Counted from the first letter of the stretch, positions 23,921 through 60,968 are shown. The stretch is 64,000 bases of DNA from Candidatus Parcubacteria bacterium (GCA_018669975.1 JABHSK010000005.1:57123-121122), one strand, 5' to 3'. Numbers and translations are program-made. Notes: a model not told the origin generated them from the sequence alone.

Positions 23921-26900
23921 ATGAAAAAAGTTTTATCCATACCAATAGTTACTTTGATACTTGGCTATTTGCAAGTAAATAAAGTTTTGGCTCAGTCGGA
24001 CATTTTAGGTGTCAACGGTATGACCGATACAGTTTTGGGTACGAGAGGGATAGAGGATACAGTGGCCTCAATTATAAATATTGTTCTCGGTCTATTGGGA
24101 ATCATTGCTGTAGTTTTGATAATCTATGGCGGGTTTTTATGGATGACTTCTAAAGGAAATACCGATCAAGTTCAACGCGCTAAAATGGTTATTATTAGTG
24201 CGGTTATTGGTTTGGTGATAATCTTGTCTGCCTATGCTATCACTAGGTTTGTTCTTGGTGCTCTGGAGAATGCTGTAGGTCCTGGTGGAGGAACTCCACA
24301 ACAACAAAACCAAAATCCAGGAGGTGCCCTTTGTCCGCCGCCGTTAAATCCAGGTGCAGTAGAGGTTTGCGATCCATTTCCTTCTGCAGCTACTGTGGGT
24401 AGTGCTTTTACAGTGGGTGCTTGGAATATTGGTCCTTGGGATACCTTAGCTACAAGCTTTGTACAATTTAATGACTTGGCAGGTAATACAGCTGTAGCAG
24501 AAATAGCTAGTTGTGGTGCCAATGGATATTATTGGAATTTACTCTATACAGATATTAACACTGGAGATGATTATTATGAGATTAGAGCTCTAGTGCCAGC
24601 TCTACCAGTATCTTTACCAAATTATGATGTTGAGGTACATAATATTAATTTGGCAAATCCTTTTTACACGCCAGCAATGCAATTTGCTATATTAAGTGGG
24701 TCACCTGCACCAAGTATTTTCTGTATTCAACCTTCACATGCTGCGACTAGTACAGCAGTGTCTATCATTGGTCGTGGTCTAGGAGTAGGTGGGCAGGCTT
24801 TGGATGAGATATTTGTAAATGCTTACCCTGGCGGTGTGCACCAACCACAATTTCCAGTTCCCGGCCCGGTTCCTGGTCCAACTATTACAAATTGGGCGGA
24901 TGATCAAATTGATTTTATAATACCAGACCAACAGATCAGTGGTAATGTTACAGTTCAAGTAGATGATGGTGCGGGTAACTCAGATACCAGTAACCCAGTT
25001 TACTTTATAGTTGATTGCACCAATGATGGTGAGTGTGCTTCTGGTTGTTGTCCTGGTTCACCGGGACCAGGTGTTTATGCCTGTTCTGAGGAAGTGGTTT
25101 GTACGGGTATTAGCTCAGCACCACACATTACGGCTATTAATCCAGATAATGGTACTGATGGAAATATAGTTACAGTATTTGGTTATAATTTTTGTGATGA
25201 CGTTGCCTGTGCTCCAGGTACAGTTTGGTTTACAGATGGCGCAAATAACCCTGTGGCCGGTATCTTACCAAGTACTCTCAATGCGCAGTGTGGAGATTTT
25301 TGGACAGACACGGCTATTATAATTGGTGTACCACCAACAGTTGATACTGGACAAGTGACCATGGAAACTGCTGCTGCAGTAGCCAGTGATAACGCTATTA
25401 CTTTTACTGAAAATAACATAGAATATCCTGGTATTTGTGCACTACAAGATGGTGCAGGTAATCCTATTACTACTGGATTTTTTGATGATGGCATACCAGT
25501 ACATGTGCACGGCATTAGATTTAATAATAACGATAGAATTACTTTTGGCGGATTTTTAGGCTATAATCCTTCCTATCTAGGTTTACCAACAGAAGTGCAG
25601 GCTGATGTGCCAAATTCAGTAGGTATAGCTGATGTAGTAGTGACATCTTCCACTGAAGCAACAATTGTAAGTAATCCTTTTCCATTTTCTGCTTTAGCTG
25701 TAACAGGTGGCTTGCCTACCATTTCAGAAATATCACCAACTAGTACTCGTATAGGAAAATATACTACTATCATGGGTGCTAATTTTGGTACCACACCTGG
25801 TGATGTTGAATTTTGGCAATTAGGAGTACATATAGATGATGGGGAGTTTACTTTCCCAGCGCAGTGTGGCAGCCATTATTGGCAGCATGACAGTATAGTA
25901 GTTAAGCCACCAACAGATTTGATACTTAATGGTGGTAACTACGGAGATTTTGATGTGGTAGTTAGAAGAAGTGGCGACAACGCTACTAGCTTACCGCATC
26001 CTGTAGAAATATTAGCAGGACCTCCTGGGCCAGGCATTTGCTTGATGCAACCAGACAATGGTCCAGCTGGTAAGACTATTAATTTTTATGGTGATAATTT
26101 TAATACCGCAGCTGGTGCTGTAGTATTTCATAATAATGAATTTGCTGATTTAACAAATGCAATTTGGGGTAATCAGCAAGTATTGACTGTGCCTGTACCC
26201 AACAATGCAGCCACTGGTCCAGTATTTATCAGAGACTCAGCGGGCATGGATAGTAATGATTTGATGTTTAGTGTTGGTGCCTGTAGTTCTGATACGCAGT
26301 GTCAAAATAATTTGCAGGGTAATATATGTTGTCCAGATACCAATGGAAATTTTTGTGATAATTATTTAGGCTGTAGCTCAATCAATGAATGTACTTATGG
26401 TTGGCGATTTACCACTGAATCATTATTGCAAGTAGTGGGCTGGGGTCCTGTTTGTGATGATTCATGTATCAACGGTACTGTCTGGGTAGATTTTAATACA
26501 GAAATAGTCGCTGCAGATCTTGATTTTAATAATTTTAGTATTTTAGAATGTACTGACTCAACTTGTCAGAATACTAACCCAGGTAATTTTGTAACTGCGG
26601 CTAGTACATTTACTCAGCCAGCACCAGCAGCTGCAGGTGATCCTTGGGTGGTAAGTTTTACACACAACGCTTTTAATCCAAATACCTACTATCTAGTAGA
26701 GGTAAATCCAAATATTCAAAATACAGACGGTGCCATTTTAGGTAATCCGCATTCCTGGAGTTTTGCCACTGGTGCTAATAACTGTGACGTTGATCATATA
26801 AATGTAGCACCGGCTAGTAGGCCTGCTTATATAGGTGATGTTATACCATTTGGTGCACAAGCTTATTCTCCTCCAAGTAGCTGTTATCCGGCTGGTCAGC

Positions 26901-29900
26901 CAATTGCTTGTGACGCAGCTATCAGCTGTAGTTGGAGTGCTTGGACCAACGATGGCGCCTATACTACTCAGATTCCAACAGGAATACCGGAATCAATGGA
27001 TATATCAGCAGATGCTGTTACACTAGTTGGTGGTACCCAGATAGGAGCTGAGGCAGTACAAGGTGCTAATACATTTAATGACTTTGGTGTTTTGGATATT
27101 ACTGTTGGTCCAAATAGTTTATTGGGGCTTAATCGACAGGCATATGGTCCAACCTGTAGTGATTCATGTTTAAATGGTGACGTTTGGATAGAGTTTGATA
27201 GCGAAGTGACCGTCAATGAAGACGCTGCACACTTTAGTATTTTAGAATGTACAGATTCAACTTGTCAGAATACAGTGGGTCCTAATCAAACTAATAGTAC
27301 AACTCAGCCAGTACCAGCAGCCGTAGGTGATCCTTGGCGCGTAGAATTAAATCATAATAATTTTTCACCAAATACTTATTATCTAGTGACCATAGATGGC
27401 AATATTGCCAATAATATTGGTCCTCTTGTAGGTGGTACCTTTACTTGGAGTTTTGGAGCAGGTGATGCTGCCTGTGATGTGGGCAATCTACTGGTGTCTC
27501 CAGCTATTGCTAATGTTAATATTGGGGATACTGTTCATTATTCTGCTCAACCTTATTCTGCGCCAGGTATTTGTTATCCAAGTGGTCAAGCAATTTCTTG
27601 TGACGCAGCCATTGGCTGTAGTTGGAACGCTTGGACAAATGATGGTGCATATACTACTCAGATTCCAATTGCAGTAGACAATATAGATATTTTAGCTAAT
27701 AATCCAACGCCAGCTGTAGGAACTCCAGTAGGTGTAGGAGTGACTCAAGGTGCTACTACTTTCTCTGGTGTAGGTACTTTGAATATAGGTACCGGAGGAG
27801 CGTCAGTGTTCTCCTCCACTGGACATGGTCCAACTTGTAGTGATTCCTGTATTAATGGTTTGGTGCATGCTGACTTTAACGAAGAGCCAGACTTCCTTCC
27901 TTCCACAAGAATTTATCAGTGTGACGATGCTACCTGTACAGCTACTTCTGGACCAAGTTTATTAGTTGGAACAAATACATATCAACTAATGGTTGGTGGT
28001 GACTGGCGAGTTCGACTTTTTCATACTCCTTTTACACCAGGTGTATCTTATCAAGCTTATGTAGATGGTGGCACTTATCATACCTATGCATCAGGTGATG
28101 CTTATCTAGGCAATGCTTTGATGTGGAGTTTTGGCACAGGCGTAAACAGCTGTGATGTTGATCGTGCAGACATTTATCCTCCAGGTCCAGATCCAATTTT
28201 AAGCACTGTAAATTTAGGAGATAATATTAGTTATTCTGTGGAGACCTATTCCGTGCCAGGTATTTGTTATCCAGGTGGTCAACCAATCGTCTGTGATGCA
28301 TCTATTGGTTGTATCTTATTTTGGAATGCAAACAGTCAACCGGGTGGTTTAGTGAATATAACCACTGCGCAAGATACTGATTCAGTTACTTACAATGCAA
28401 CTACCGTCGGTAATAATGATACGGTAAGGATGAGAGCCGTGCAGAATGCAACACAGTTTCTAGATGCCACTGATGTTGATGTTGTTACTGGCGTGCTTCC
28501 AGGTAGTCCAAATATAGTTGACCATGAGCCAGTAGCACTGCCAGTTTGTATTAATGCTGCGCCAACAGTTGTTTTTGATCAGTTGATGGATTCAGCTAGT
28601 ATTAATAGTAATGTTAAAGTATATAGAACTGGAACTCCGGGACCTAATTGTATTAGTCCTGGTAATCCTACTCTTTGTGAGGTTCCAGGTTCATTTACTC
28701 TTGTAGCAGATTCAGCCATACCAGAGACACGGGCCATATTCAATCCCGATACATATTTGGCTACTTCTACAAATCATTATTTATATGTAGGTCCAAACAC
28801 GCAGAGTTTAGATGGTCAGAGTCTTGGTTGGACTACTGACCTTGCGTTTTCTATGCTGGAAGTAACTGGTGATGGAGTTGTGGATGGACTTGCTTGGATG
28901 TTTCCTACTAATCAAACTGTTTGTCAACTTAGTCATGCGATAATCACGCCAACTTATGATTTCTTTCATTGTTCTTTAGATGATTGTGATGAAAATGATG
29001 TTGCACCGGGTGGTAATAATGAGCATAGATATACTGCTGTAGCCTATGGTGTGGATGGTTCACCGCTAAACGTTTCTAATTATTGGTGGACTAACAGTGA
29101 TCCTTCCATATTTACTATAGACTCTCAGACAACTCAACAGATTATGGGTTGGCCAGGATTTGATAATGGGCATGTTACTTTGTCTGTATCAGCCTGGGAC
29201 AATGACCCAGCTATTACAGGTACCGTTGGAGCAGCAGCAGGTATTGAAATTTTCCTTTGTGAAAATCCATGGCCTAGTGCAAACACCGTGCCTTGGGAGC
29301 CAGGCCCACCACCAAATCCTTATCATTATTCAACCCTATATTGTTTAGATGATGGTGATGGTGGATTCCTACCTTACTTAGATGCAGCTGTATCAGCTAC
29401 TAATCCAAATCCAAATGGTGTTTTAAATGCCGGTGAAAGAATATTTATTATCAACCCATCTAGTTCCATGGGAAGTTTGAATTTAGCTCAATATCAGTTT
29501 GGTAGTTTAGCTTATGGAAGAGAGTTGGATATTGATAATAATTTAAGTGAAAATAAATCGTGGTTTGAGAAAATTAGAACTGCTCTTTGGGGAGATGTTA
29601 AAAAAGCAGAGGGACAGGCCAATGCCTTACCAATGTGTGCGCCAGGTAACCCGACAAATCTACAGGTCAGTAGTGTAGATGACACTCAGGTTACCTTGAC
29701 TTGGGGTAACGCTTCAAGTGGTGTTGGACCCAATGGTGCAGTCACAAACTATAATATGTACCGTAGAGAAATTCCAAATGGTAATTATCCAGGCCCTTTA
29801 CAGGGCACTATAAATGTGCCAGGGCAGAGAATATTTACAGATAATACTGTAGTGACAGATACTATTTATGAATATACCGTGACTGCTGAGGCATCAGCTT

Positions 29901-32900
29901 GTCCTGCAGAAACTTTTCCTGTAGTCAGTACGACTGTTACAGCATCTATTTCACAGCCGCATGTAGATATCATAGGTCTTAGGGTGATGGGCAACGATGA
30001 GCACTTGTCTATTACTGATTGGTATAAACAACATGCACCAAATCCAGAAGTACTTGGTGAGATAAAAGAAATAGATGGCTATGAGGCCATGCAAGTTGGT
30101 AATACCACTTATATAGGTGCTTTGAACATGTCAGGACTTATTTATACAAATGTTTATATAATATCCCACAATATAGGTGCTAGTGGAGACACTCGTGATA
30201 TCTATAAGCAATTTATAGAAAACATGAAGTTCAACACTAACATGCCTAGATTGGAAAATGTCTGTAATGCAGATACATCAATTATTTGTTCTAGTGATTT
30301 TGATTGTCCGGTGGGAGATTATTGTACATCTAGAGATTTAAAAATAAAACGTGATTTACAACGCCTAGGTGACTTGATGAATGTTAAAAACATGGTAGAG
30401 GAATATGGTCAATCACATAAGGCTTGTAGTCATAATAGTGCTATTGCTTGTGTAGATGACTCACCTTGTATTTTAGGAGGAGGCACCTGTGTCTCATATT
30501 ATCCATTGCTTAATGCAGGAACCTTTGTGAATGGTATGAGTAATAGTAATTGGCCATCATGGAATACTACTTTACGTACTATTTTGGGAGAGGAATTACC
30601 AGAAGATCCAATTGGTTTATTTAACGGGTGTCCACCAGGTGCTGACCCTGACACATGTTGGGATGAATTAGTTTCACCACCAGAGTTTACTTGTCCAGCT
30701 GAATCATTGATATATTTTTATAATAATGATGTTAATGTTTCGCAAGGTATAGACTATTTCTTGGGAGCCAATTTTGAGTATGATTCTAGTCCAGCTTTAC
30801 ATTTTGATCCTTCGGGGTTTAATCCGTTGACTTTTGGTTGTGATTTATATAATGGACCAGCTAGTATAACTGGTATTTGGCCAGACCCGGCTTGTCCGGT
30901 ACCACAGGATGGTATGCCACATATTTATTCTAGTTTAGATAGCCTGTGTAGTGTGGCTAGTGTTTATTCTCCAGGTGCAGTCACTATCCCTTCTTGTGGA
31001 AATGGCACCTGGGAACCAGATGGTGTTGATGGTGTGCCAAATACACCTGACGATGAAATATGTGAACCTGGTATGCAGAGAAATTTGTGTATAGAAACAG
31101 TAGTTCCGCTAGGAACGGATTGGTGGGATGCAGGAAACCACATAGGTGGTTGTAATCCTGTCGGCACAGAAGATGCCGGTGGTAATCTAATTGAGTGTAC
31201 TTGGTATGAGCCAGATCCTGCTCTAACGGCAGTAGATTGTGGAGGCTATTGTGGTAATAATACTATAGATCCAGTTGAGTCCTGTGATGGTGCAGCTGGT
31301 TTTGATGGACTTTATACTTGCTACGATCCAGATACCATGACTACTAGTACCCCTGTTTGTAATATTAATGTTTGCCAAGCTTTTTGCCCAACCGGAAACT
31401 TAGCATCCCTCTGTGGAGATGGTGCTTGGGATGCTAGCTATGAACAATGTGATGCCAGTGCTGATCCAAGCGGATTGGTAGGCTGGGATTGTGGTGTGGT
31501 GGCTACTTCAACGGTAGCTTGTAATAATTGTGCTATAGAATGTACTATCGGCGGAACTTTATATAATGGTGTATGTGGTAATGATATTATTGAGTGGCCA
31601 GAAGAATGTGAGCCAGGAATACATATTCCTCCAACAGCAGCGACTTCATCGCCGACTTATCAATATTTATGTGATCCTACTTATTGTGTTTATGATGGTG
31701 GTTATTGCGCAGATGGCATTAATCCTGGACCGTATGATTCAGGCGGCAATACTAATGAAGTGGCCATATTGATAGATGGTAGTGCTTTCTACCAACCAGA
31801 AGAATGTGATGATTTAGAATGGGATATACCACAGAGGCATAATTCAGATCAAGATTATGAATATTTATGTAATTCTTGCGTAATTGAAGGTGGCTATTGT
31901 GGTGACGGCAATCGAGATTCTGCAGCTGGTATTTCTCCTAGTCCACCAGAAGAATGTGATGATGGTAATAATTCTGAGGCAGATGTCTGTACTAATGCCT
32001 GTGAGTGGGGCTGTGAAGATGTGGCAATTGGGCCTTTTCCAAGAGCGCCAATTTTGGCTGGCTACATTTCCTCAAAGAATACCGACGATGGTTTATTGTT
32101 TAACACTACTGATGCCACAGTAGAGCTACACGCTGGAGACTCGGCTACGCTACCTCTAGGTAGTTGTCGTATCAGTGGCGATGTAGTAGTTGATGTGACT
32201 GTGCATGGTAATGATTCATATGCAGGTATAGTATTTGTTGTGGACAGGTCAAGTAGTATGAGTGGTGATATAGCTGCTGCTAAAAATGCGATCGGTTCTG
32301 CTATTGTGACAATATTTGACCGTAATCCAACTGCTCAAATTGCTATCGTTGAGTACGGAGATGACGCTTGGACAAGAATTAATTTTACAGGTTTTGAGCA
32401 GGAGAATTTATTAATTGGTAGTTTTAGGAAAACTGGTGCTATAGGAGGAGCAGTTAACCAAATTAATGCCGATAGGCCTAGTACAGACCACTCTATTGGT
32501 TTAGATAGGGCTTATGGTTTATTTAATGCTACTAGCTTTGAGAATAACATAGTTATTTTTATGACAGATGGGAGTCCAACTGGTGGTGTAACTGGGAACT
32601 GTGTTAATGGTGCTAATGTTGGTGATGCCTACGGTCGGACCTTATGTATAGCTGAAAATGATCTTAAATTTTGTAACAATCCCGCAGTAGACACGTGCGT
32701 AGATATGTTTACAGTAGCCTTTACTTCTAATGTCGGTTTGCAAGGTTTTTTAAACGCCGTTTCTTCTTCAGATTGTGTTTATTCTAATTATGGAAGATCA
32801 ACTACAGGGGGTACTTGCGGTAGTAATGGTATTGAATGTCTAAATACTTTAAATCAACGGGAAGAATGTGATGGTGGTCCAGACTGTATATCATCTGCCT

Positions 32901-33265
32901 TGCCCAACGCTTGTCAATGGTCAGGAGATAGGGTTAATGACAATAGGGCGTATTCTGGTAGTAGTCAAGCGGAGTTGGCTCAGATGTATCAGGATATATC
33001 AGGATCCATCCCTATTAATAATGTTTTACTTGCCTTGGATAATTCGGGTGCTACTACCACATTAAATGATATTGGAGTTACTTTTGATAATTCTTACCGT
33101 ATTCATACCAATGGAATTGCAACTTGCAGTGACGGCTCCACTGTTGATAATGAGCTAAATATTAGTGCTAATTTTACAGGTAATATAAATGCTTATCTAG
33201 AATTGAGCAATCCAGTTTATGAATTCTGCCATTGGTATAACTGTCCCTGGTGTTTTAATAACTAA
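23921..33265 (+). CDS. giant (3114 aa) multidomain cell-surface protein: TrbC/VirB2-like N-terminal membrane module; IPT/TIG-like domains; 3 tandem repeats of about 230 aa; FN3; Cys-rich CGDG...ECDDGN repeats (Myxococcus-type, DUF4215-like); vWA domain with MIDAS DRSSS
   Basis: Single uninterrupted 9345-nt ORF; motifs PHITAINPDNGTDGNIVTVFGYNF (IPT), PTNLQVSSVDDTQVTLTW (FN3), CGDGNRDSAAG...EECDDGNNSEADVCTNAC, FVVDRSSSMSGDIAAAKNAIG (vWA). Confidence 0.75.
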   Translation: MKKVLSIPIVTLILGYLQVNKVLAQSDILGVNGMTDTVLGTRGIEDTVASIINIVLGLLGIIAVVLIIYGGFLWMTSKGNTDQVQRAKMVIISAVIGLVIILSAYAITRFVLGALENAVGPGGGTPQQQNQNPGGALCPPPLNPGAVEVCDPFPSAATVGSAFTVGAWNIGPWDTLATSFVQFNDLAGNTAVAEIASCGANGYYWNLLYTDINTGDDYYEIRALVPALPVSLPNYDVEVHNINLANPFYTPAMQFAILSGSPAPSIFCIQPSHAATSTAVSIIGRGLGVGGQALDEIFVNAYPGGVHQPQFPVPGPVPGPTITNWADDQIDFIIPDQQISGNVTVQVDDGAGNSDTSNPVYFIVDCTNDGECASGCCPGSPGPGVYACSEEVVCTGISSAPHITAINPDNGTDGNIVTVFGYNFCDDVACAPGTVWFTDGANNPVAGILPSTLNAQCGDFWTDTAIIIGVPPTVDTGQVTMETAAAVASDNAITFTENNIEYPGICALQDGAGNPITTGFFDDGIPVHVHGIRFNNNDRITFGGFLGYNPSYLGLPTEVQADVPNSVGIADVVVTSSTEATIVSNPFPFSALAVTGGLPTISEISPTSTRIGKYTTIMGANFGTTPGDVEFWQLGVHIDDGEFTFPAQCGSHYWQHDSIVVKPPTDLILNGGNYGDFDVVVRRSGDNATSLPHPVEILAGPPGPGICLMQPDNGPAGKTINFYGDNFNTAAGAVVFHNNEFADLTNAIWGNQQVLTVPVPNNAATGPVFIRDSAGMDSNDLMFSVGACSSDTQCQNNLQGNICCPDTNGNFCDNYLGCSSINECTYGWRFTTESLLQVVGWGPVCDDSCINGTVWVDFNTEIVAADLDFNNFSILECTDSTCQNTNPGNFVTAASTFTQPAPAAAGDPWVVSFTHNAFNPNTYYLVEVNPNIQNTDGAILGNPHSWSFATGANNCDVDHINVAPASRPAYIGDVIPFGAQAYSPPSSCYPAGQPIACDAAISCSWSAWTNDGAYTTQIPTGIPESMDISADAVTLVGGTQIGAEAVQGANTFNDFGVLDITVGPNSLLGLNRQAYGPTCSDSCLNGDVWIEFDSEVTVNEDAAHFSILECTDSTCQNTVGPNQTNSTTQPVPAAVGDPWRVELNHNNFSPNTYYLVTIDGNIANNIGPLVGGTFTWSFGAGDAACDVGNLLVSPAIANVNIGDTVHYSAQPYSAPGICYPSGQAISCDAAIGCSWNAWTNDGAYTTQIPIAVDNIDILANNPTPAVGTPVGVGVTQGATTFSGVGTLNIGTGGASVFSSTGHGPTCSDSCINGLVHADFNEEPDFLPSTRIYQCDDATCTATSGPSLLVGTNTYQLMVGGDWRVRLFHTPFTPGVSYQAYVDGGTYHTYASGDAYLGNALMWSFGTGVNSCDVDRADIYPPGPDPILSTVNLGDNISYSVETYSVPGICYPGGQPIVCDASIGCILFWNANSQPGGLVNITTAQDTDSVTYNATTVGNNDTVRMRAVQNATQFLDATDVDVVTGVLPGSPNIVDHEPVALPVCINAAPTVVFDQLMDSASINSNVKVYRTGTPGPNCISPGNPTLCEVPGSFTLVADSAIPETRAIFNPDTYLATSTNHYLYVGPNTQSLDGQSLGWTTDLAFSMLEVTGDGVVDGLAWMFPTNQTVCQLSHAIITPTYDFFHCSLDDCDENDVAPGGNNEHRYTAVAYGVDGSPLNVSNYWWTNSDPSIFTIDSQTTQQIMGWPGFDNGHVTLSVSAWDNDPAITGTVGAAAGIEIFLCENPWPSANTVPWEPGPPPNPYHYSTLYCLDDGDGGFLPYLDAAVSATNPNPNGVLNAGERIFIINPSSSMGSLNLAQYQFGSLAYGRELDIDNNLSENKSWFEKIRTALWGDVKKAEGQANALPMCAPGNPTNLQVSSVDDTQVTLTWGNASSGVGPNGAVTNYNMYRREIPNGNYPGPLQGTINVPGQRIFTDNTVVTDTIYEYTVTAEASACPAETFPVVSTTVTASISQPHVDIIGLRVMGNDEHLSITDWYKQHAPNPEVLGEIKEIDGYEAMQVGNTTYIGALNMSGLIYTNVYIISHNIGASGDTRDIYKQFIENMKFNTNMPRLENVCNADTSIICSSDFDCPVGDYCTSRDLKIKRDLQRLGDLMNVKNMVEEYGQSHKACSHNSAIACVDDSPCILGGGTCVSYYPLLNAGTFVNGMSNSNWPSWNTTLRTILGEELPEDPIGLFNGCPPGADPDTCWDELVSPPEFTCPAESLIYFYNNDVNVSQGIDYFLGANFEYDSSPALHFDPSGFNPLTFGCDLYNGPASITGIWPDPACPVPQDGMPHIYSSLDSLCSVASVYSPGAVTIPSCGNGTWEPDGVDGVPNTPDDEICEPGMQRNLCIETVVPLGTDWWDAGNHIGGCNPVGTEDAGGNLIECTWYEPDPALTAVDCGGYCGNNTIDPVESCDGAAGFDGLYTCYDPDTMTTSTPVCNINVCQAFCPTGNLASLCGDGAWDASYEQCDASADPSGLVGWDCGVVATSTVACNNCAIECTIGGTLYNGVCGNDIIEWPEECEPGIHIPPTAATSSPTYQYLCDPTYCVYDGGYCADGINPGPYDSGGNTNEVAILIDGSAFYQPEECDDLEWDIPQRHNSDQDYEYLCNSCVIEGGYCGDGNRDSAAGISPSPPEECDDGNNSEADVCTNACEWGCEDVAIGPFPRAPILAGYISSKNTDDGLLFNTTDATVELHAGDSATLPLGSCRISGDVVVDVTVHGNDSYAGIVFVVDRSSSMSGDIAAAKNAIGSAIVTIFDRNPTAQIAIVEYGDDAWTRINFTGFEQENLLIGSFRKTGAIGGAVNQINADRPSTDHSIGLDRAYGLFNATSFENNIVIFMTDGSPTGGVTGNCVNGANVGDAYGRTLCIAENDLKFCNNPAVDTCVDMFTVAFTSNVGLQGFLNAVSSSDCVYSNYGRSTTGGTCGSNGIECLNTLNQREECDGGPDCISSALPNACQWSGDRVNDNRAYSGSSQAELAQMYQDISGSIPINNVLLALDNSGATTTLNDIGVTFDNSYRIHTNGIATCSDGSTVDNELNISANFTGNINAYLELSNPVYEFCHWYNCPWCFNN
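26440..28520 (+). repeat. three tandem in-frame repeats of about 690-700 bp (about 230 aa) inside the giant gene
   Basis: Recurring GPTCSDSC(I/L)NG..W.(D/E)F...ILECTDSTCQNT...GDPW...YYLV...CDV...YS.P..CYP.GQ.I.CDAAI.CSW.AWTNDGAYTTQIP, with stretches of near-identical DNA. Confidence 0.7.
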
Positions 33266-39865: not shown

Positions 39866-39934
39866 TTATTAACAGTTGCTTAATTGTATATTGCGTGTTA
39901 AGATAATTTTACTTTGACAATTATATCAGGGAAG

Positions 39935-40130
39935 CGAGGTTAGATTCCTCCACAGTCCTAGCTACGGTATATCCCCAAAGGGGTAAAGTCCGACACCTGA
40001 GTTTTATTCTTTTTTCTAAGGAGAGAAAGGGCAAATTTATTATAAAGATAATAACTTTATCCGTCCTCTCCTTAATGGGGAGTTTTTTAATAGTTAAAAT
40101 TGTTCTTTATCAATAAATCAAGGAGGTAGA
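39935..40130 (+). promoter_or_regulatory. structured 5' leader (candidate cis-regulatory RNA) upstream of the TTG-start lipoprotein gene
   Basis: GC-rich about 75-nt segment with a cccc-aaa-gggg hairpin and a CUAGCUAC octamer, followed by an aaggagag...ctctcctt long stem and U-run; then SD AAGGAGG and TTG. Confidence 0.3.
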
Positions 40131-40133
40131 GCG

Positions 40134-40622
40134 TTGAACATCACTCGTCGTAAAGTTGTTAAACGGGGGTTGGGTATTCTAGTGTTTGCTCCGTTTGTGA
40201 GCTTGAGTAGTCTTCTATCGGGATGCATGAATATCACTGATCCCGAGGTAGAGTTACCGAAGCAACCCGAACAGCCATTGGCTGACAAGTCCGAACCAGA
40301 GGATCTAGTGCAATCAGGTACTGTAGCTGATTTTTTACAGAGGCGGGTAATATCTATTGAGTATTACGAGCAGTCTGATTGGAATTGTGGCTCTGGTCTA
40401 TTATTGATGAAGCACCTGGTGACTTCTCGTGGAGACCATGGTCTAGATGGGTATGAATATTTTATCAACGGAGAGTGTGTCCAGGAGGCTATTAATTTAG
40501 TTGATTTCAATCCCAGTCAGAGATTGTCTATTAAACGAAATGGACAGCGTGTCTGGAGCTATAAGCCTAGGACCAGACCTAATGTTCATATGCATGAACA
40601 AGCTCTACCAGAACCAACTTGA
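40134..40622 (+). CDS. putative Tat-signal lipoprotein, GC-rich cassette gene (TTG start)
   Basis: RRKVVKRG twin-Arg-like n-region, hydrophobic core, lipobox LLSGC; AAGGAGG SD 7 nt upstream of the TTG; local GC about 50%. Confidence 0.5.
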   Translation: MNITRRKVVKRGLGILVFAPFVSLSSLLSGCMNITDPEVELPKQPEQPLADKSEPEDLVQSGTVADFLQRRVISIEYYEQSDWNCGSGLLLMKHLVTSRGDHGLDGYEYFINGECVQEAINLVDFNPSQRLSIKRNGQRVWSYKPRTRPNVHMHEQALPEPT

Positions 40623-54425: not shown

Positions 54426-54453
54426 TTGACAAATTTTTTATTTATGCTATAAT
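54426..54453 (+). promoter_or_regulatory. consensus sigma70 promoter TTGACA-16-TATAAT
   Basis: TTGACA at 54426-54431, TATAAT at 54448-54453. Confidence 0.6.
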
Positions 54454-54459
54454 GCGTAA

Positions 54460-55485
54460 TCAGTCTAAAGTTAGACAACCGAACATTTTTCAATCAAACA
54501 GACCCAAGTCGCGATAAACAACGAAGGAGTTGTTAATAGAATGCGGAGCGGAGCCGCTTAACTCCGTGCGTAGTCACCCTGGAACGGCCATCAAACGGCC
54601 ACATCTTTTAAGAATCAGGGAGGGATCAATGATCTATACGCATCCACCGTAGCTATGGCTTATTTTCACTAAAGCCTCACAACGTCCGATGAGGCGGTTT
54701 AAACCTCCGATAATTTTTATCAGCTTAAAAGCTGATAAATAACAACAAGTAATAACATCGGTTTAAACCTAGGACAGCCGTTTAGCCCTTAGAACATCTT
54801 GCGCCCACCGGTACTAAGTACCTGTTGGCCCAATTAGGGCTCGACACAACCACCCGGCCATCCTGCTGCCTAGCATGGAGGAGTCACCCGATGACGAACA
54901 TTCGGCTGATGCACATGCTGCCCTTACCATTCTATTAACCCTTAACTGATTTCTCCTTCGGCGCGGCTGCCAATTTCAACACTCCGGATTCATCGACGAG
55001 CGGAATCGCCGCAACGAGCGCACTCATTTTCTACGTGCTCATACGGCGCTTTCCGGCGACGGCACACATTGCCGCCTTGCCGGACCACCTTCCGCCACCA
55101 TTTCCGGAGACGCGACGTCTTGACACCCGAGAAGAGCTGGTGAAGCTGACCAGCACTTTGCTCGGCGTACCCGTGCCCTCATTACTTACCGCCAATCAGG
55201 CGGCATTTAATAGGGAGGCACTTGCCTCAAGACGTCCGACGGCAGCCGCGCCGTCTTTCTTACCAAAAACAAGACAGACAATCGACGAGGGTCAGTGCGA
55301 CCGACAAACAGTAGACCGGACTGAATTCGCCATACATCCCATTCCGATGGGATACGGAAAGCCTAGTGCTCTACCGGCGAGCGAACTTCCTGCTCCAGCT
55401 ATTGGACATCCGCTTTACTCGTTTCTCGAGTTGTGCGCCCGGGGGGTACCTACCACTTTTGTGGAAAGGGCCCTCTTTTTTTATG
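54460..55485 (+). ncRNA. candidate large structured ncRNA: about 1-kb GC-rich (50-58%) island without a credible ORF, between a consensus promoter and a terminator-like GGGCCC hairpin plus T8; identity unresolved
   Basis: Only ORF is 55035..55490 (GTG start, no SD, Pro/Ala/Arg-rich, looks spurious); self-complementary GGTTTAAACC x2; perfect hairpin tttatcagctt-aa-aagctgataaa. Confidence 0.4.
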
Positions 55486-55587
55486 TATAAACAGTCAAAT
55501 ACTTGACTTTAATATTTCTTTATGCTATTTTATCTACGACTTTAAAGCAGCTTTTTGCTTTAAATTATTTAATTTTATTGTTTAAAT

Positions 55588-56016
55588 ATGCCAACAGTAA
55601 ACCAATTATTGAAAAAACCTAGGAAGTCTCCTAAGAGAAAGAGTACTACCCCTGCCTTGAAGACTGTTTTGAATAGTTTGAAAAGGAGAAAGAAAGATCT
55701 ACAAAAAGGCGCACCATTCAAAAGAGGAGTGTGTTTGAAGGTTACTACAGTGACCCCAAAGAAACCTAATTCAGCTTTACGTAAAATTGCTAGGGTTAGA
55801 CTTTCTAATGGTATGGAAGTAACAGCCTATATTCCAGGTGAAGGACATAACTTGCAAGAGCATAGTATTGTTTTGATTCGTGGTGGTAGGGTAAAAGATC
55901 TTCCAGGTGTCAGATATCATGTAGTGCGTGGTGTCTATGATACTCAGGGAGTAGAAGGTAGAAAACGAGGCCGTTCACTGTATGGTACTAAAAAAGATAA
56001 AAAGGCTAGTAAATAA
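55588..56016 (+). CDS. rpsL: 30S ribosomal protein S12 (with a short basic N-terminal insertion)
   Basis: [12 protein letters not shown]..., [38 protein letters not shown]. Confidence 0.9.
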
Positions 56017-56040: not shown

Positions 56041-56505
56041 ATGAGAGGAAAAAAAGCACCAAAAAGAAAAATTGAGGCAGATCCAAAGTTTCAGAGAGTC
56101 GATATTGCCAAATTGATAAATAAAATTATGGAGCGTGGTAAAAAGACCATTGCTCAAAAAGTTGTCTATGGCGCTTTTGAATATATTTCAAGCAAGGCAA
56201 AGGAAGATCCTATTGAAACATTTGATGCAGCCATTAGAAATATTTCACCAAATTTGGAAGTTAAAGGTAAAAGAATTGGCGGCGCCAATTATCAAGTACC
56301 GATTGTAGTTATTGGTGATAGAAAGATGACCTTGGCTTATCGTTGGTTGATTGAAGCTGCTAAAGCTCGTAAGGGCGCTGCAATGTCAGTTAGACTTGGT
56401 GAAGAGTTGCTAGCCGCTGCTAAAGGTGAGGGTTCTGCTATGAAAAAACGTGAAGATGTACAAAGAATGGCTGAATCAAATAGAGCCTTTGCACACTTTG
56501 CATAA
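56041..56505 (+). CDS. rpsG: 30S ribosomal protein S7
   Basis: RGKKAPKR..., TLAYRWL, C-terminal RAFAHFA; follows rpsL. Confidence 0.9.
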   Translation: MRGKKAPKRKIEADPKFQRVDIAKLINKIMERGKKTIAQKVVYGAFEYISSKAKEDPIETFDAAIRNISPNLEVKGKRIGGANYQVPIVVIGDRKMTLAYRWLIEAAKARKGAAMSVRLGEELLAAAKGEGSAMKKREDVQRMAESNRAFAHFA

Positions 56506-56514
56506 ACATATTTT

Positions 56515-57201
56515 ATGTCGAAAGCCTTTTCATTTGATAATATAGAAAATCAACCCGGGCAATTAGCCCAGGAAGTTTTAAGAAATAACATAGACTCTGC
56601 TTTAGACGATTACTCTGTGCTTTTAAAAAGACGTGTTGAAGGCCAGGTAGATGAGAAGCTAGAACAACAAATACAAGAACAACGTCAAAACCTAATCCAG
56701 CTTTCACAACAGCTTGATAGCCAGTTGGAGCTGGATGATGTATTTTTTGAGAGGGTAAGCGAGTTATTGGAAGTAGCAGATAAAGGAATAGAAATTGGTA
56801 GAAAAGAACTTCAAGATAGATCAGATGGCAAGAGTAATATTGAAGCAATCATTTCTGATATGAGGGAATACGCTAATCAGCTTGCTAGAATTGACGCACA
56901 ACTATTAAATGTAGATACAGATTCTACCGAATCAGAAGAGATCATTTTGGAACTCAAGACCATGATACGAGCAATGACTAGTATGGCAGGAGAAATACAA
57001 AGAGTGATTTTATCTCTAGAAAGAGAAGATAAGGCAGATTTGATTCGAAGACAAGTAAAGATAATGAATGATTTGGTGAGTGCGATTAAGCACTTTGATG
57101 AATTAGATAAAGATATAAATAAATTAAAGAAAATAAGAGAACATTTTTATAAACATTTTGATGAAGCAATATTCTTTTATGAAGAATTAAAAGATTTATA
57201 A
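56515..57201 (+). CDS. hypothetical acidic coiled-coil protein inserted between rpsG and fusA
   Basis: 228 aa, Glu/Asp/Gln-rich, heptad-like helical sequence; no known family; sits inside the otherwise conserved str operon. Confidence 0.5.
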   Translation: MSKAFSFDNIENQPGQLAQEVLRNNIDSALDDYSVLLKRRVEGQVDEKLEQQIQEQRQNLIQLSQQLDSQLELDDVFFERVSELLEVADKGIEIGRKELQDRSDGKSNIEAIISDMREYANQLARIDAQLLNVDTDSTESEEIILELKTMIRAMTSMAGEIQRVILSLEREDKADLIRRQVKIMNDLVSAIKHFDELDKDINKLKKIREHFYKHFDEAIFFYEELKDL

Positions 57202-57233
57202 AAATAATATAATTAAAATTTTAGAAAAATAAT

Positions 57234-59330
57234 ATGCCCAGACAGTATCCATTAGGAAAAATTAGAAACATTGGCATCATTGCTCATATTGATGCTGGAA
57301 AAACTACCGTCACCGAACGTATCCTTTTTTATACTGGTAAAAAACATAAGATTGGTGAAGTCCACGAAGGTGAAGCTGAGATGGACTGGATGGAGCAGGA
57401 GAAAGAAAGAGGTATTACTATTACCTCAGCTGCTACTACTTGTTTTTGGGATCTACCAGATTGGTTAGGTGGTGACAAGGCTAACATTAATATTATTGAT
57501 ACCCCAGGCCACGTTGATTTTACTGTAGAGGTAGAGAGATCTTTACGTGTTTTAGATGGCGGTGTGATTGTTTTTGATGGTGTAGCTGGTGTAGAGCCAC
57601 AATCTGAAACTGTTTGGAGACAAGCTGATAAATACAATGTACCTAGAATAGCCTTTATCAACAAGATGGATAGAATGGGTGCAGATTTTTATTATGATTT
57701 AGATACTATTCACGAAAGATTAACTAAGATTGCTCATCCAATGCAGCTACCTATTGGTGCTGCTGAAACCTTTGAAGGTATTATTAATCTTTTGGAAAAA
57801 GAAGCTTGGTTTTATTTAGATGAAGATGGTAAGGAATTTGAAAAACGTGATATTCCAGAAGACTTGAAAGATAAAGTAGAAGAATATCGTGGTAAATTGA
57901 TTGAAGCCATTGTTGAAAATGATGAAGCTTTGATGGAAAAATATCTTGGCGGTGAAGAACCAGCTCTTGAAGATTTGAAAAAAGTTTTACGTAAGGCAGT
58001 GATCGATAATAAGATTGTACCTGTTTTTGTGGGCTCCGCACTTAAGAATAAAGGTGTGCAATTCTTGTTGGATGCTATTGTTGCTTATTTACCATCACCA
58101 CTTGATTTACCCGACATTGAAGGTACTGAGCCACGTAACGAAGAAAGTAAAGTTATTGTAAAAGCATCTGATGATGAACCGTTTACTGGTTTAGCTTTTA
58201 AAGTAGCTACCGATCCCTATGTTGGTAGATTAACTTTTGTCAGAGTTTATTCTGGCATTTTACAGTCAGGATCTTATGTTTATAATACTAACTCAGATAA
58301 GAAAGAAAGAATTGGTCGTATTTTAAGAATGCACGCTAATTCTCGTGAAGAAGTAAGTGAAGTGTATGCTGGTGATATTGTAGCCGTGGTTGGTCTTAAA
58401 AACACCACCACTGGTCATACGATAGTTGACCCAAGTCGACATGTTGTTTTGGAGAGTATGGAATTCCCTGATCCAGTTATTTTTGTGGCTGTTGAGCCAA
58501 AGACTAAACAAGATCAAGAAAAGATGGGACTAGCTTTGAGTAAGCTTACTGAAGAAGATCCTACCTTTACTGTCCGTACAGATGAAGAGACCAACCAGAC
58601 AATTATTGGTGGTATGGGAGAACTACACTTGGATATTATCATTGATCGTATGAAACGAGAGTTTTCTGTCGAAGCCAATGTTGGTGCTCCGCAGGTTGCT
58701 TTCAAAGAGACTATTGGAGTTCAGGCTGAAGCAGAAGGTAAATACGTCAAGCAGTCAGGTGGTCGTGGTCAATATGGTCATTGTTGGTTGAGGTTAGAGC
58801 CAATGGAAAGAGGTGCAGGTTTTGAATTTAGTGATGAAATCAAAGGCGGCTCTATTCCTAAAGAATATATTCCAGCTATTGAAAAAGGTATTAAGCAAAC
58901 AATGGCTAACGGAATTTTAGCTGGTTATCAAATTCAAGATGTTAGGGCTGTCGTTTACGATGGTAGTTATCATGAGGTTGATTCTTCTGAAGCAGCGTTT
59001 AAAGTAGCTGGTTCAATGGCTTTTAAAGCAGCCTTTAATAAAGCAAATCCTTCTGTCCTAGAACCGATTATGAAAGTAGAAGCTGTCACACCTGAACAAT
59101 ATATGGGTGACGTTATTGGTGATTTGAATTCTAAGAGAGGACAGGTTTCAGAAATGACAGATAGGGCTGGCGCTAAAGTTATTAATGCTGAAGTGCCACT
59201 TTCAGAGATGTTTGGCTATGCTACATCCCTTCGTTCTATGACGCAGGGTCGTGCTAGTTATTCTATGGAATTTGCCAAATATCAGGAAGTACCGAAGAGT
59301 GTAGAAGAAGAGTTGAAGAAGAAAGCGTAA
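57234..59330 (+). CDS. fusA: elongation factor G
   Basis: [22 protein letters not shown]; full five-domain length. Confidence 0.95.
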
Positions 59331-59400
59331 TTGTGATATAATATATAGAGCTGGTTTAGGCCAGTGTAATATATAAAATTTATTAGTAACACCCAGTAAA

Positions 59401-59595
59401 ATGCCACAAGGAAAAGTAAAGTGGTTCAATGACACCAAGGGTTTCGGTTTTATCGAACAAGATGATGGAGGTGCAGACCTCTTCGTTCACAAGACCGAAG
59501 TTGAAGGTGGTTCTTTGCAAGAAGGACAAGTTGTTGAATACGAAGTCGGCGAAGGTCCAAAAGGTCCTAACGCCACCAATGTAAAAGTTGCCTAA
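59401..59595 (+). CDS. cold-shock protein (CspA family)
   Basis: [15 protein letters not shown] (RNP1) and VFVHK (RNP2). Confidence 0.9.
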
Positions 59596-59618
59596 AAACA
59601 ATTGATATATTGAAAAAT

Positions 59619-59646
59619 TAAACCCCGCTTAGGCGGGGTTTTTTTG
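59619..59646 (+). terminator. intrinsic terminator after csp
   Basis: aaccccgcc-taa-ggcggggtt plus T8 (exact stem offsets approximate). Confidence 0.8.
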
Positions 59647-59693: not shown

Positions 59694-60836
59694 TCAAACA
59701 ATCTGGACAGCAAAGCCCTGGTCTACCATGCCTCGCATCATTGTAACCGCTGGATCATTGTCAGCTGGGACAATGACAGTAGTATCCCTAAATTGACTGG
59801 GATAGTCATGGTTGTTTAGGAAGGTTAGCTTGAGACCAGTGTTAATAATCAGACCGGGATTATAGATGCTGTTTTGTAGCACCGGCGTTAGTAGTTTGCC
59901 AGCTCTTTTTTCGTGATACTCTCGATCACAGAATAGTTTGAAGGCCAACAATTTGCCAGCAGAGAAGAAGGCTACCGCGATATTAGGTAGACTTTCTTGA
60001 ATTTTCTCACCGCTGTGAGCAATGACACCGATATTACTGACAACTTCACGACTATCATCCAGTAGGTAGGCAAAGCGGAGCGGACCTATGGGTGATTTGA
60101 TGCCATTCTCCAAAGGGAAGAAGCGCAAATGAGTGCCACGACGATTATTGTCGTATTTACCTTTCTTGTTGTAGCAGAGCATGAGCAGTTTTTCCGTATC
60201 CTTGAAGCTGACGCGGGTGCTGAGCTTGGATTCATTGGTGATACGACGAATTGATCCGCAAAACACACCGCGTTCATAGGCCACAAAGACTTCACCAGTC
60301 AGTAGATTGAGAACGATAGCAAAACGAATCTGGTTGTCTTTGAGGAAAGTGACGGAAGCATTTGGTGCCTGTACGCGGGCTAGTGGTTTGCCGATACGTT
60401 TGAGTTCGGCGTCAAAAATTTGACCCATAGTCTGGCAAGAGTCACCAAATTCCTCGATCATTCTTTCTAGATGAGATGATCCATCTATTGGATCAGAGAT
60501 AATAATCGGAGTATTGGTTTCGATGCGACGGTCTTTGGGTACACGACCACGTTCTTCGGTGATGACTACACCTGATTGACGGTAGATGCGTTGGAAGAGG
60601 GAATAGTGACCAAAGCATTGTTCACCGCCAAGGCAGATGATATCTTCGGCTACCACATCAAACCAACGTGTGTCCTTTCCATCTTTACGGGAATAGAGTG
60701 TCTGAGTTTCAGCGTCCATTTCGCTGATGTGGCGGATAGCATCTTTGACAGATAGGCGACATAGCGTGTTGTACATTCGTCGCATAATAGTCAGGGAGCC
60801 ATTGAGCATCATGGTGTCTTTGTTGGGGGGAGCCAT
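59694..60836 (-). CDS. inositol-monophosphatase/FBPase-superfamily-like phosphatase with an N-terminal extension (GC-rich islet gene)
   Basis: VVITEERG (metal-binding EE) about 40 aa before IIISDPIDGSSHLE (IMPase-like DPxDG[ST] motif); start set at the internal MAPPNK, which has GGAGGT 5 nt upstream (ORF track start 60902 has no SD). Confidence 0.4.
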   Translation of the reverse strand: MAPPNKDTMMLNGSLTIMRRMYNTLCRLSVKDAIRHISEMDAETQTLYSRKDGKDTRWFDVVAEDIICLGGEQCFGHYSLFQRIYRQSGVVITEERGRVPKDRRIETNTPIIISDPIDGSSHLERMIEEFGDSCQTMGQIFDAELKRIGKPLARVQAPNASVTFLKDNQIRFAIVLNLLTGEVFVAYERGVFCGSIRRITNESKLSTRVSFKDTEKLLMLCYNKKGKYDNNRRGTHLRFFPLENGIKSPIGPLRFAYLLDDSREVVSNIGVIAHSGEKIQESLPNIAVAFFSAGKLLAFKLFCDREYHEKRAGKLLTPVLQNSIYNPGLIINTGLKLTFLNNHDYPSQFRDTTVIVPADNDPAVTMMRGMVDQGFAVQIV

Positions 60837-60968
60837 TTTATTACCTCCGGCTCGGGTGATTGTTTGTGGGTTGTGAAGGTTCGATTGATAAATTTTTAAC
60901 ATAAATACATACTCTGGTCAAACCAGGAAAAATAAAATACCTACACTGCAAGTGTAGGTATCAGGTTG

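Follow-up and report, generated by a model that had tools for sequence, protein, structure and literature searches.

Lineage-restricted hypothetical proteins are abundant in the genomes of the CPR, and the ribosomes of CPR/Patescibacteria are already unusual. The closest described counterparts of the gene that is the subject of this study are small genes that occupy the same spacer, between rpsG and fusA, in related Patescibacteria: those encoding the 23S_rRNA_IVP protein (PF05635), a four-helix bundle, and the GxxExxY/PDDEXK_3 protein (PF13366). Both are small, without known function and patchy in their distribution. Two further points of comparison lie outside the locus. Translin/TRAX proteins (PF01997/COG2178) are all-helical with about seven helices, and many DNA-mimic proteins are acidic and helical. 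Our search of the literature on rpsG, fusA and Parcubacteria found nothing relevant.

Here we analyse an additional gene, referred to as X, that lies between rpsG and fusA in a 64-kb stretch of Candidatus Parcubacteria DNA; by the window we mean this whole stretch. Like 23S_rRNA_IVP and PDDEXK_3, X is small, lacks a known function and is patchily distributed, and its C-terminal half is predicted to be a four-helix bundle, as in 23S_rRNA_IVP. However, X is twice as long, acidic and restricted to one small clade, whereas the other two families are widespread. X resembles in kind the small accessory genes of highly transcribed translation loci, as well as the lineage-restricted hypothetical proteins of the CPR. 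Our preferred reading, which we hold with a probability of roughly 0.6, sees in X a real, co-transcribed accessory gene, restricted to its clade, that encodes an acidic helical binding module.

Organization of the locus

An ORF of 228 codons wedged between rpsG and fusA had been proposed from the DNA sequence alone, without database searches, and it was recovered with exactly the gaps to its neighbours that this sequence-only reading had given (Table 1). The genes on both sides are assigned through the Pfam domains of their orthologs. No Shine-Dalgarno sequence is recognisable before rpsL, rpsG, X, fusA or the cold-shock gene, and the 25 nt upstream of each are AT-rich. A leader of about 85 nt (55497-55580) precedes rpsL and includes the promoter-like site at 55503..55531; it recurs, conserved, in more than 15 related loci and is the sole part of the region upstream of rpsL that is conserved throughout the clade.

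Table 1. Features of the str locus in the window, and inserts found in the rpsG-fusA spacer of related loci (L numbers)
Feature	Position or locus	Strand	Remarks
Perfect sigma-70 promoter TTGACA-16-TATAAT with TG motif	54426-54453	+	just upstream of the GC-rich unit
GC-rich unit	~54460-55482	+	~1 kb, within the 1.2 kb that separates rpsL from the M50 peptidase gene
GC hairpin and T-run terminator	~55437-55482	+	3' end of the GC-rich unit
Promoter-like site upstream of rpsL	55503..55531	+	TTGACT-17-TATTTT, 9/12 matches, TG present
rpsL (ribosomal protein S12)	55588..56016	+	142 aa; Pfam Ribosom_S12_S23 on orthologs
rpsG (ribosomal protein S7)	56041..56505	+	154 aa; Pfam Ribosomal_S7 on orthologs
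rpsG-X spacer	56506..56514	+	9 nt; 8-14 nt across all carriers
X	56515..57201	+	ATG start, 228 aa, orphan family
X-fusA spacer	57202..57233	+	32 nt, AT-rich, unstructured, without hairpin; MFE 0 kcal/mol
fusA (elongation factor G)	57234..59330	+	698 aa; EF-G Pfam domains on orthologs
Promoter-like site inside the fusA 3' end	59313-59342	+	consensus scan
Cold-shock domain protein gene	59401..59595	+	64 aa, PF00313; next after fusA, instead of tuf
Terminator-like hairpin, bidirectional	59620..59641	+	9 pairs then T-run; first strong one past the operon
Insert: 23S_rRNA_IVP	L021, L022		L021 member 118.9 bits to PF05635
Insert: PDDEXK_3	L046, L083		
Insert: MNT/HepT pair and acidic secreted-looking ORF	L086		
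Insert: secreted or lipoprotein-like proteins	L039, L056		
Insert: 165-aa acidic ORFs, pI 4.5	L035 3966-4475; L037 3229-3734		

We scanned the region from rpsL to the end of fusA by simple consensus matching and found neither a terminator nor a convincing promoter belonging to X. Apart from the hairpin past the operon, the terminator-like matches on the plus strand between 55588 and 59600 are weak stems of 3 GC pairs within fusA. The lack of such signals makes co-transcription with rpsL, rpsG and fusA, which had been suggested from the sequence, the natural reading of the locus. A sub-threshold match to the cspA thermoregulator extends over 59187-59646, across the end of fusA and the cold-shock gene.

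X homologs are intact and constrained

A search of 5.8 billion proteins returned five clusters: one with the identical protein, deposited as a hypothetical protein of Candidatus Parcubacteria bacterium (MBT6691261.1), and four with related proteins of 237-239 aa (42-56% identity). A scan of metagenomes brought in L007 and L009 as further lineages. In all, X homologs are intact in six lineages besides that of the window, with 42-57% identity to the window protein, and they lie invariably between rpsG and fusA; across the seven lineages 8-14 nt separate the rpsG stop codon from X, and 14-32 nt separate X from fusA. The exact gene has been assembled independently in at least eight samples with zero nucleotide differences, so that these identical contigs offer no polymorphism by which selection could be gauged. 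The name of one contig, SI39no09_200m, points to the water column at 200 m and suggests Saanich Inlet. Judged by these searches, the family of X is an orphan and occurs only in one small clade of marine Parcubacteria.

The seven X sequences share 66 invariant residues, and conservation extends to the start codon and the N-terminus. The most conserved motifs are QEVLRxxIDxALDDY (residues 19-33), ELKTMI (146-151), GEIQR (159-163) and, at the C-terminus, HFYxHFDExxxFYEELxD (210-227). Six divergent DNA copies, all with an intact frame, gave pairwise dN/dS values of 0.09-0.35 over 15 pairs, figures that are approximate as dS is near saturation. For the same genome pairs dN is 0.31-0.45 in X versus 0.03-0.11 in S12, S7 and EF-G, which places the nonsynonymous evolution of X at 3-10 times the rate of its neighbours. 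Synonymous codon usage and GC3 of X match those of rpsL, rpsG and fusA. These comparisons indicate that X is a genuine protein-coding gene under purifying selection.

The window copy is the most divergent member of the family, 44-56% identical to the others, which are 52-82% identical to one another, and its loop preceding helix 5 is shortened by a 7-residue deletion; being the most divergent, it marks the window lineage as the fastest-evolving one. Save for this long branch, the divergence of X roughly tracks that of the host genes, which fits vertical descent rather than mobility. Paralogs of X, internal repeats, a partner gene and boundaries of a mobile element were all looked for in the window, with none found.

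Two database variants are recorded here for completeness. One ENA contig (P0006/P0007 cluster) has X with a 37-residue C-terminal extension, which we suspect to be a contig-end or chimeric artefact, and another contig in the window-protein cluster (P0006/P0007) shows I161K, a change in a residue that is otherwise invariant.

Carriers of X are interleaved with non-carriers

When species representatives were ranked by the similarity of their S7, the top 80 (57-87% identity) all lacked X. The nearest relatives, L010 and L011, have S7 proteins 84-87% and EF-G proteins 91-93% identical to those of the window, and their rpsG-fusA spacers measure 64-68 nt. In a bootstrapped neighbour-joining tree of S12, S7 and EF-G (981 columns) the lineages with X are interleaved with those without it: the window groups with L001 (100% bootstrap), L007, which has X, with L010, which lacks it (80%), and L009, which has X, with L026-L028, which lack it (100%). 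The simplest reading is a single ancient acquisition of X and then at least two or three losses, the tree being built on the genes that flank X, so that recombination at the locus could distort the losses inferred from it. Transfer of X by recombination between the conserved flanks may also have taken place. Not one column in the S12, S7 and EF-G alignments separates carriers from non-carriers.

Because its closest relatives lack it and carriers are interleaved with non-carriers, X is best regarded as a dispensable accessory gene. The comparison with related genomes, which had been put forward as a check on the ORF, thus speaks both ways: X is conserved and intact in some close relatives, in its favour, and absent from others, against it.

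The rpsG-fusA spacer is a site of turnover

Relatives without X have rpsG-fusA spacers of 56-130 nt. We folded six of these (L010, L011, L013, L014, L020 and L026): every one contains a stable hairpin, with z scores of -2.1 to -4.9, and a U-run follows it in five. The position of the hairpin is conserved, and it can be seen by eye in L012 and L027 as well. Its appearance in the sequence is terminator- or attenuator-like. Carriers of X lack the spacer hairpin. The S7 and EF-G genes had been described from the sequence as almost always translationally coupled; this generalization fails in the present clade, since spacers of this length with a hairpin separate the two genes where X is absent.

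Both rpsG and fusA are present in 78 related loci. The spacer is 200 nt or shorter in 66 of them, and in nine it reaches 464 nt or more and contains unrelated ORFs. Several spacers of 190-300 nt are non-coding, some of them GC-rich (L064, L069 and L081). The long spacers hold quite different genes (Table 1). In L035 and L037 the S7 and EF-G proteins are 97% identical; the acidic ORFs of the two spacers are essentially impossible to align (42% nucleotide and 24% amino-acid identity), and that of L037 is a singleton among 5.8 billion proteins. This indicates either replacement of the cassette or extreme divergence between conserved flanks.

Across these loci the rpsG-fusA spacer is thus a permissive site in Patescibacteria with a fast turnover of cargo. 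Between near-identical flanks one finds by turns terminator hairpins, genes of the rRNA-IVS type, toxin-antitoxin genes or hypervariable acidic ORFs, a pattern that bears on how new genes obtain expression. Since unrelated cargo occupies the same spacer, position alone is weak evidence for a role of X at the ribosome or with EF-G.

X belongs to no described family

Pfam, NCBIfam, PADLOC and PHROGs returned nothing significant for the window protein or any other member of the family, and neither did searches of PDB sequences with the single X sequence or with the family profile. Run exhaustively against 1.84 billion cluster representatives, hmmsearch with the family profile retrieved the family's own cluster only. 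The claim that X belongs to no known family is thus upheld by all these searches.

The weak matches that did appear deserve a brief account. The best PADLOC match (DruC, E 8e-4) was obtained with two of the seven members and not with the window protein, and the best PHROGs match (E 0.003) is to a family of unknown function. DUF2203 (PF09969) gave a register-consistent, sub-threshold match in five of the seven members, aligning X residues ~105-171 with model positions 11-79. We rejected it, with scores of 10.7-13.9 bits where the gathering score is 24 (E 0.09-0.9) and no match for the window protein; as DUF2203 has no known function, even a true link would leave X unexplained. Matches in the PDB to the FtsY N-domain and to BAG domains (E 0.05-0.4) were set aside as helical or compositional noise; that to FtsY weakened when the family profile was used, and for this reason was treated as noise. 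Homology to the other spacer genes was likewise rejected: X has no Pfam match to 23S_rRNA_IVP (PF05635) and an hhalign probability of 0.1% against the L021 protein, and the probability is below 1% for the acidic ORFs of L035 and L037.

Predicted structure of the X protein

X was expected from its sequence to be a Glu/Asp/Gln-rich protein, and so it proved: it has 49 Asp and Glu, 18 Gln, and 31 Lys and Arg residues, a pI of 4.63 and a net charge of -18. The 228-aa sequence contains no Cys, no Trp and no hydrophobic segment, and no catalytic signature was recognised in it.

In the AlphaFold2 models the protein is all-alpha, with seven helices of 17-30 residues and loops of 4-11 residues between them. 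Confidence is low, with a pLDDT of 62.1 for the first model and 66.5 for a second run (5 sequences, P0003); the best part of the P0003 model is the C-terminal four-helix bundle (pLDDT 71-86), and residues 70-110 are strongly conserved yet poorly modelled. The expectation of a helical coiled coil stands in its first half only: the models describe helices of limited length with short loops and contain no long uninterrupted heptad-repeat helices, so that X is predicted to be an up-down helical bundle, not an extended coiled coil.

The top structural neighbours of both models are de novo designed helical repeats and bundles, the soluble domain of IncA, and generic bundles. Identity to the designed proteins and IncA is 8-12% over an aligned part of about half of X, and with models of low confidence this likeness is one of architecture only, which implies neither shared ancestry nor shared function.

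Possible roles of X

Since X has neither a terminator nor a convincing promoter of its own and carriers lack the spacer hairpin, it is probably transcribed from the rpsL promoter. The message would be rpsL-rpsG-X-fusA, X would thus ride on the str operon with high, growth-coupled expression, and its product would probably be made in amounts comparable to those of S7 and EF-G. This product is modelled as a soluble, strongly acidic bundle of seven amphipathic helices, the C-terminal half forming a predicted four-helix bundle that ends in the invariant aromatic/acidic motif HFYxHFDE...FYEEL. Such a protein would most likely be a non-enzymatic protein-binding module, one that binds a basic partner or shields a nucleic-acid-binding surface. 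Two specific readings can be accommodated within this overall account, and the chances that we assign to them below are to be understood within it.

The first is that X is hitch-hiking cargo unrelated to translation, either a conflict-related gene (a nucleic-acid mimic, an anti-defence or an immunity protein) or a young gene kept because a spacer in so strongly transcribed an operon offers it free expression. We regard this as possible, though we would not bet on it. The contents of the spacer in relatives, namely 23S_rRNA_IVP, PDDEXK_3, MNT/HepT and rapidly replaced singleton acidic ORFs, are what one would expect of a cargo site; the patchy distribution of X and its dN, far above that of the flanking genes (0.31-0.45 against 0.03-0.11), agree with it, and by analogy its acidic, helical nature invites comparison with DNA-mimic proteins. 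However, neither PADLOC nor PHROGs recognises X, it has no partner gene, repeats or element boundaries, its codon usage is native, and its divergence roughly follows that of the host genes, as in vertical descent.

The second is that X is a dedicated, lineage-specific factor associated with the ribosome or EF-G, as the sequence-only reading had supposed. X would then bind S7, S12, EF-G or the stalk region and tune translocation, and coupling within the operon would fix its ratio to its partners. Its placement is fixed in all seven lineages, and the position and the 8-14 nt distance to rpsG are kept down to 76% S7 identity, which could mean that coupled expression matters for function. The lack of its own terminator and convincing promoter, the loss of the attenuator hairpin in carriers, the strong acidity, the invariant aromatic/acidic C-terminal helix and the purifying selection all fit such a factor. 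On the other hand, the closest relatives do without X and are interleaved with carriers, no column of S12, S7 or EF-G correlates with its presence, unrelated cargo fills the same spacer in relatives, and X has no similarity to any known translation factor. That X is lineage-specific has been borne out; its position, in view of the unrelated cargo, is weak evidence for the role. All told, we think it doubtful that the partner of X belongs to the translation machinery, and doubtful to the same degree that X is a dedicated factor of this kind. If the ribosome or EF-G did prove to be its target, X would stand as a rare accessory protein of translation specific to one lineage of the reduced CPR/Patescibacteria.

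A further proposal, to which we give little credence, is more speculative. The spacer would be a cradle or landing pad in which new genes obtain strong expression for free, with X as its oldest established case: arisen or captured there, X would have replaced the attenuator hairpin and turned into an acidic, clade-specific modulator of the translation machinery (with S7, S12, EF-G or the stalk as examples of a target), and the singleton acidic 165-aa ORFs of L035 and L037 would represent younger stages of the same process.

A place for X among the RNA- or ssDNA-binding proteins of the translin/TRAX (C3PO) type is very improbable, and at the level of sequence this reading is effectively refuted. 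It arises from the JGI name for the exact X sequence, 'predicted translin family RNA/ssDNA-binding protein', and from a weak NCBIfam match to PRK14562 (19.7 bits, E 5e-4, residues 138-205), which we take to be an archaeal translin-like model; the description given by the search tool is 'haloacid dehalogenase superfamily protein'. In gross features X does resemble translin: both are all-helical, and X, with 228 aa and seven helices, is similar to it in length and helix count. However, the PRK14562 match was obtained for one of five family members and falls far short of the model's cutoff of 359 bits, and Pfam Translin (PF01997) matches none of the seven (at E<=10 for five members and E<=1 for two). 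Aligned by hhalign with human translin, whose sequence we confirmed against PDB entries 3pja and 1j1j, the X family profile reached a probability of 0.8%, and that out of register. The PDB profile search listed no translin chain, and three fold searches with the low-confidence models gave no significant match. We accordingly rejected membership of PF01997/COG2178 on the profile, hhalign and PDB searches. With no credible alignment between X and TRAX, positions equivalent to the catalytic Glu/Glu/Asp of TRAX cannot be defined.

Lastly, the reading of X as a chance ORF in a widened intergenic stretch, prompted by the missing database family and by the short, empty spacer of close relatives, has practically no chance of being right and is refuted by the conservation pattern, with the frame intact in six divergent DNA copies at dN/dS well below 1, a conserved start codon and N-terminus, 66 invariant residues, and 228 open codons in DNA of 34% GC that would be very unlikely to arise by chance.

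For now, the main value of X lies in its being a clean case of an orphan gene fixed in one of the most conserved bacterial operons.

A GC-rich structured unit upstream of rpsL

Between rpsL and the gene for the M50 peptidase lies a unit whose GC content is 0.46-0.59, versus 0.375 for the whole window, flanked by a promoter and a terminator of its own (Table 1). It is non-coding: against L001, to which it is 80% identical across its full length (1.2 kb), substitutions are spread over positions modulo 3 as 59/73/65, indels are not multiples of three, and stop codons interrupt all frames. Folding z scores against shuffled sequences are -10.9 on the plus strand and -10.2 on the minus strand, and a three-sequence alignment contains some compensatory changes. 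Rfam searches of the window and eight relatives, at gathering and E-value thresholds, matched no family, for the window unit not even at E<=1, and neither ARAGORN nor nhmmer identified the unit.

GC-rich blocks of 0.5-2 kb lie at the same place in L007, L009, L010, L011, L013, L021 and L099, with little overall sequence similarity to the window unit. Terminator-like 3' ends likewise occur in six relatives (L007, L010, L011, L016, L021 and L029). Its folding and sequence features make the unit a candidate for a new large structured RNA, and it may be of greater interest than X.

Other features of the window

The whole 64 kb yielded no tRNA gene, nor any Rfam family at gathering score. On the minus strand, at 59694-60902, lies a 402-aa ORF with a GC content of 0.46 and a GC3 of 0.46, against a GC3 of ~0.25 in its neighbours; it fits the local codon usage poorly, has no Pfam family and is conserved in a related 188-kb contig. 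This ORF may have been acquired horizontally. A giant ORF of 3114 aa occupies 23921-33265 on the plus strand. Upstream of the ORF at 40134..40622, positions 39915-40038 (plus strand) give a sub-threshold match resembling the AdoCbl (cobalamin) riboswitch, which reaches 35.8 bits where the gathering score is 50 (E 0.007) and covers the full length of the model.
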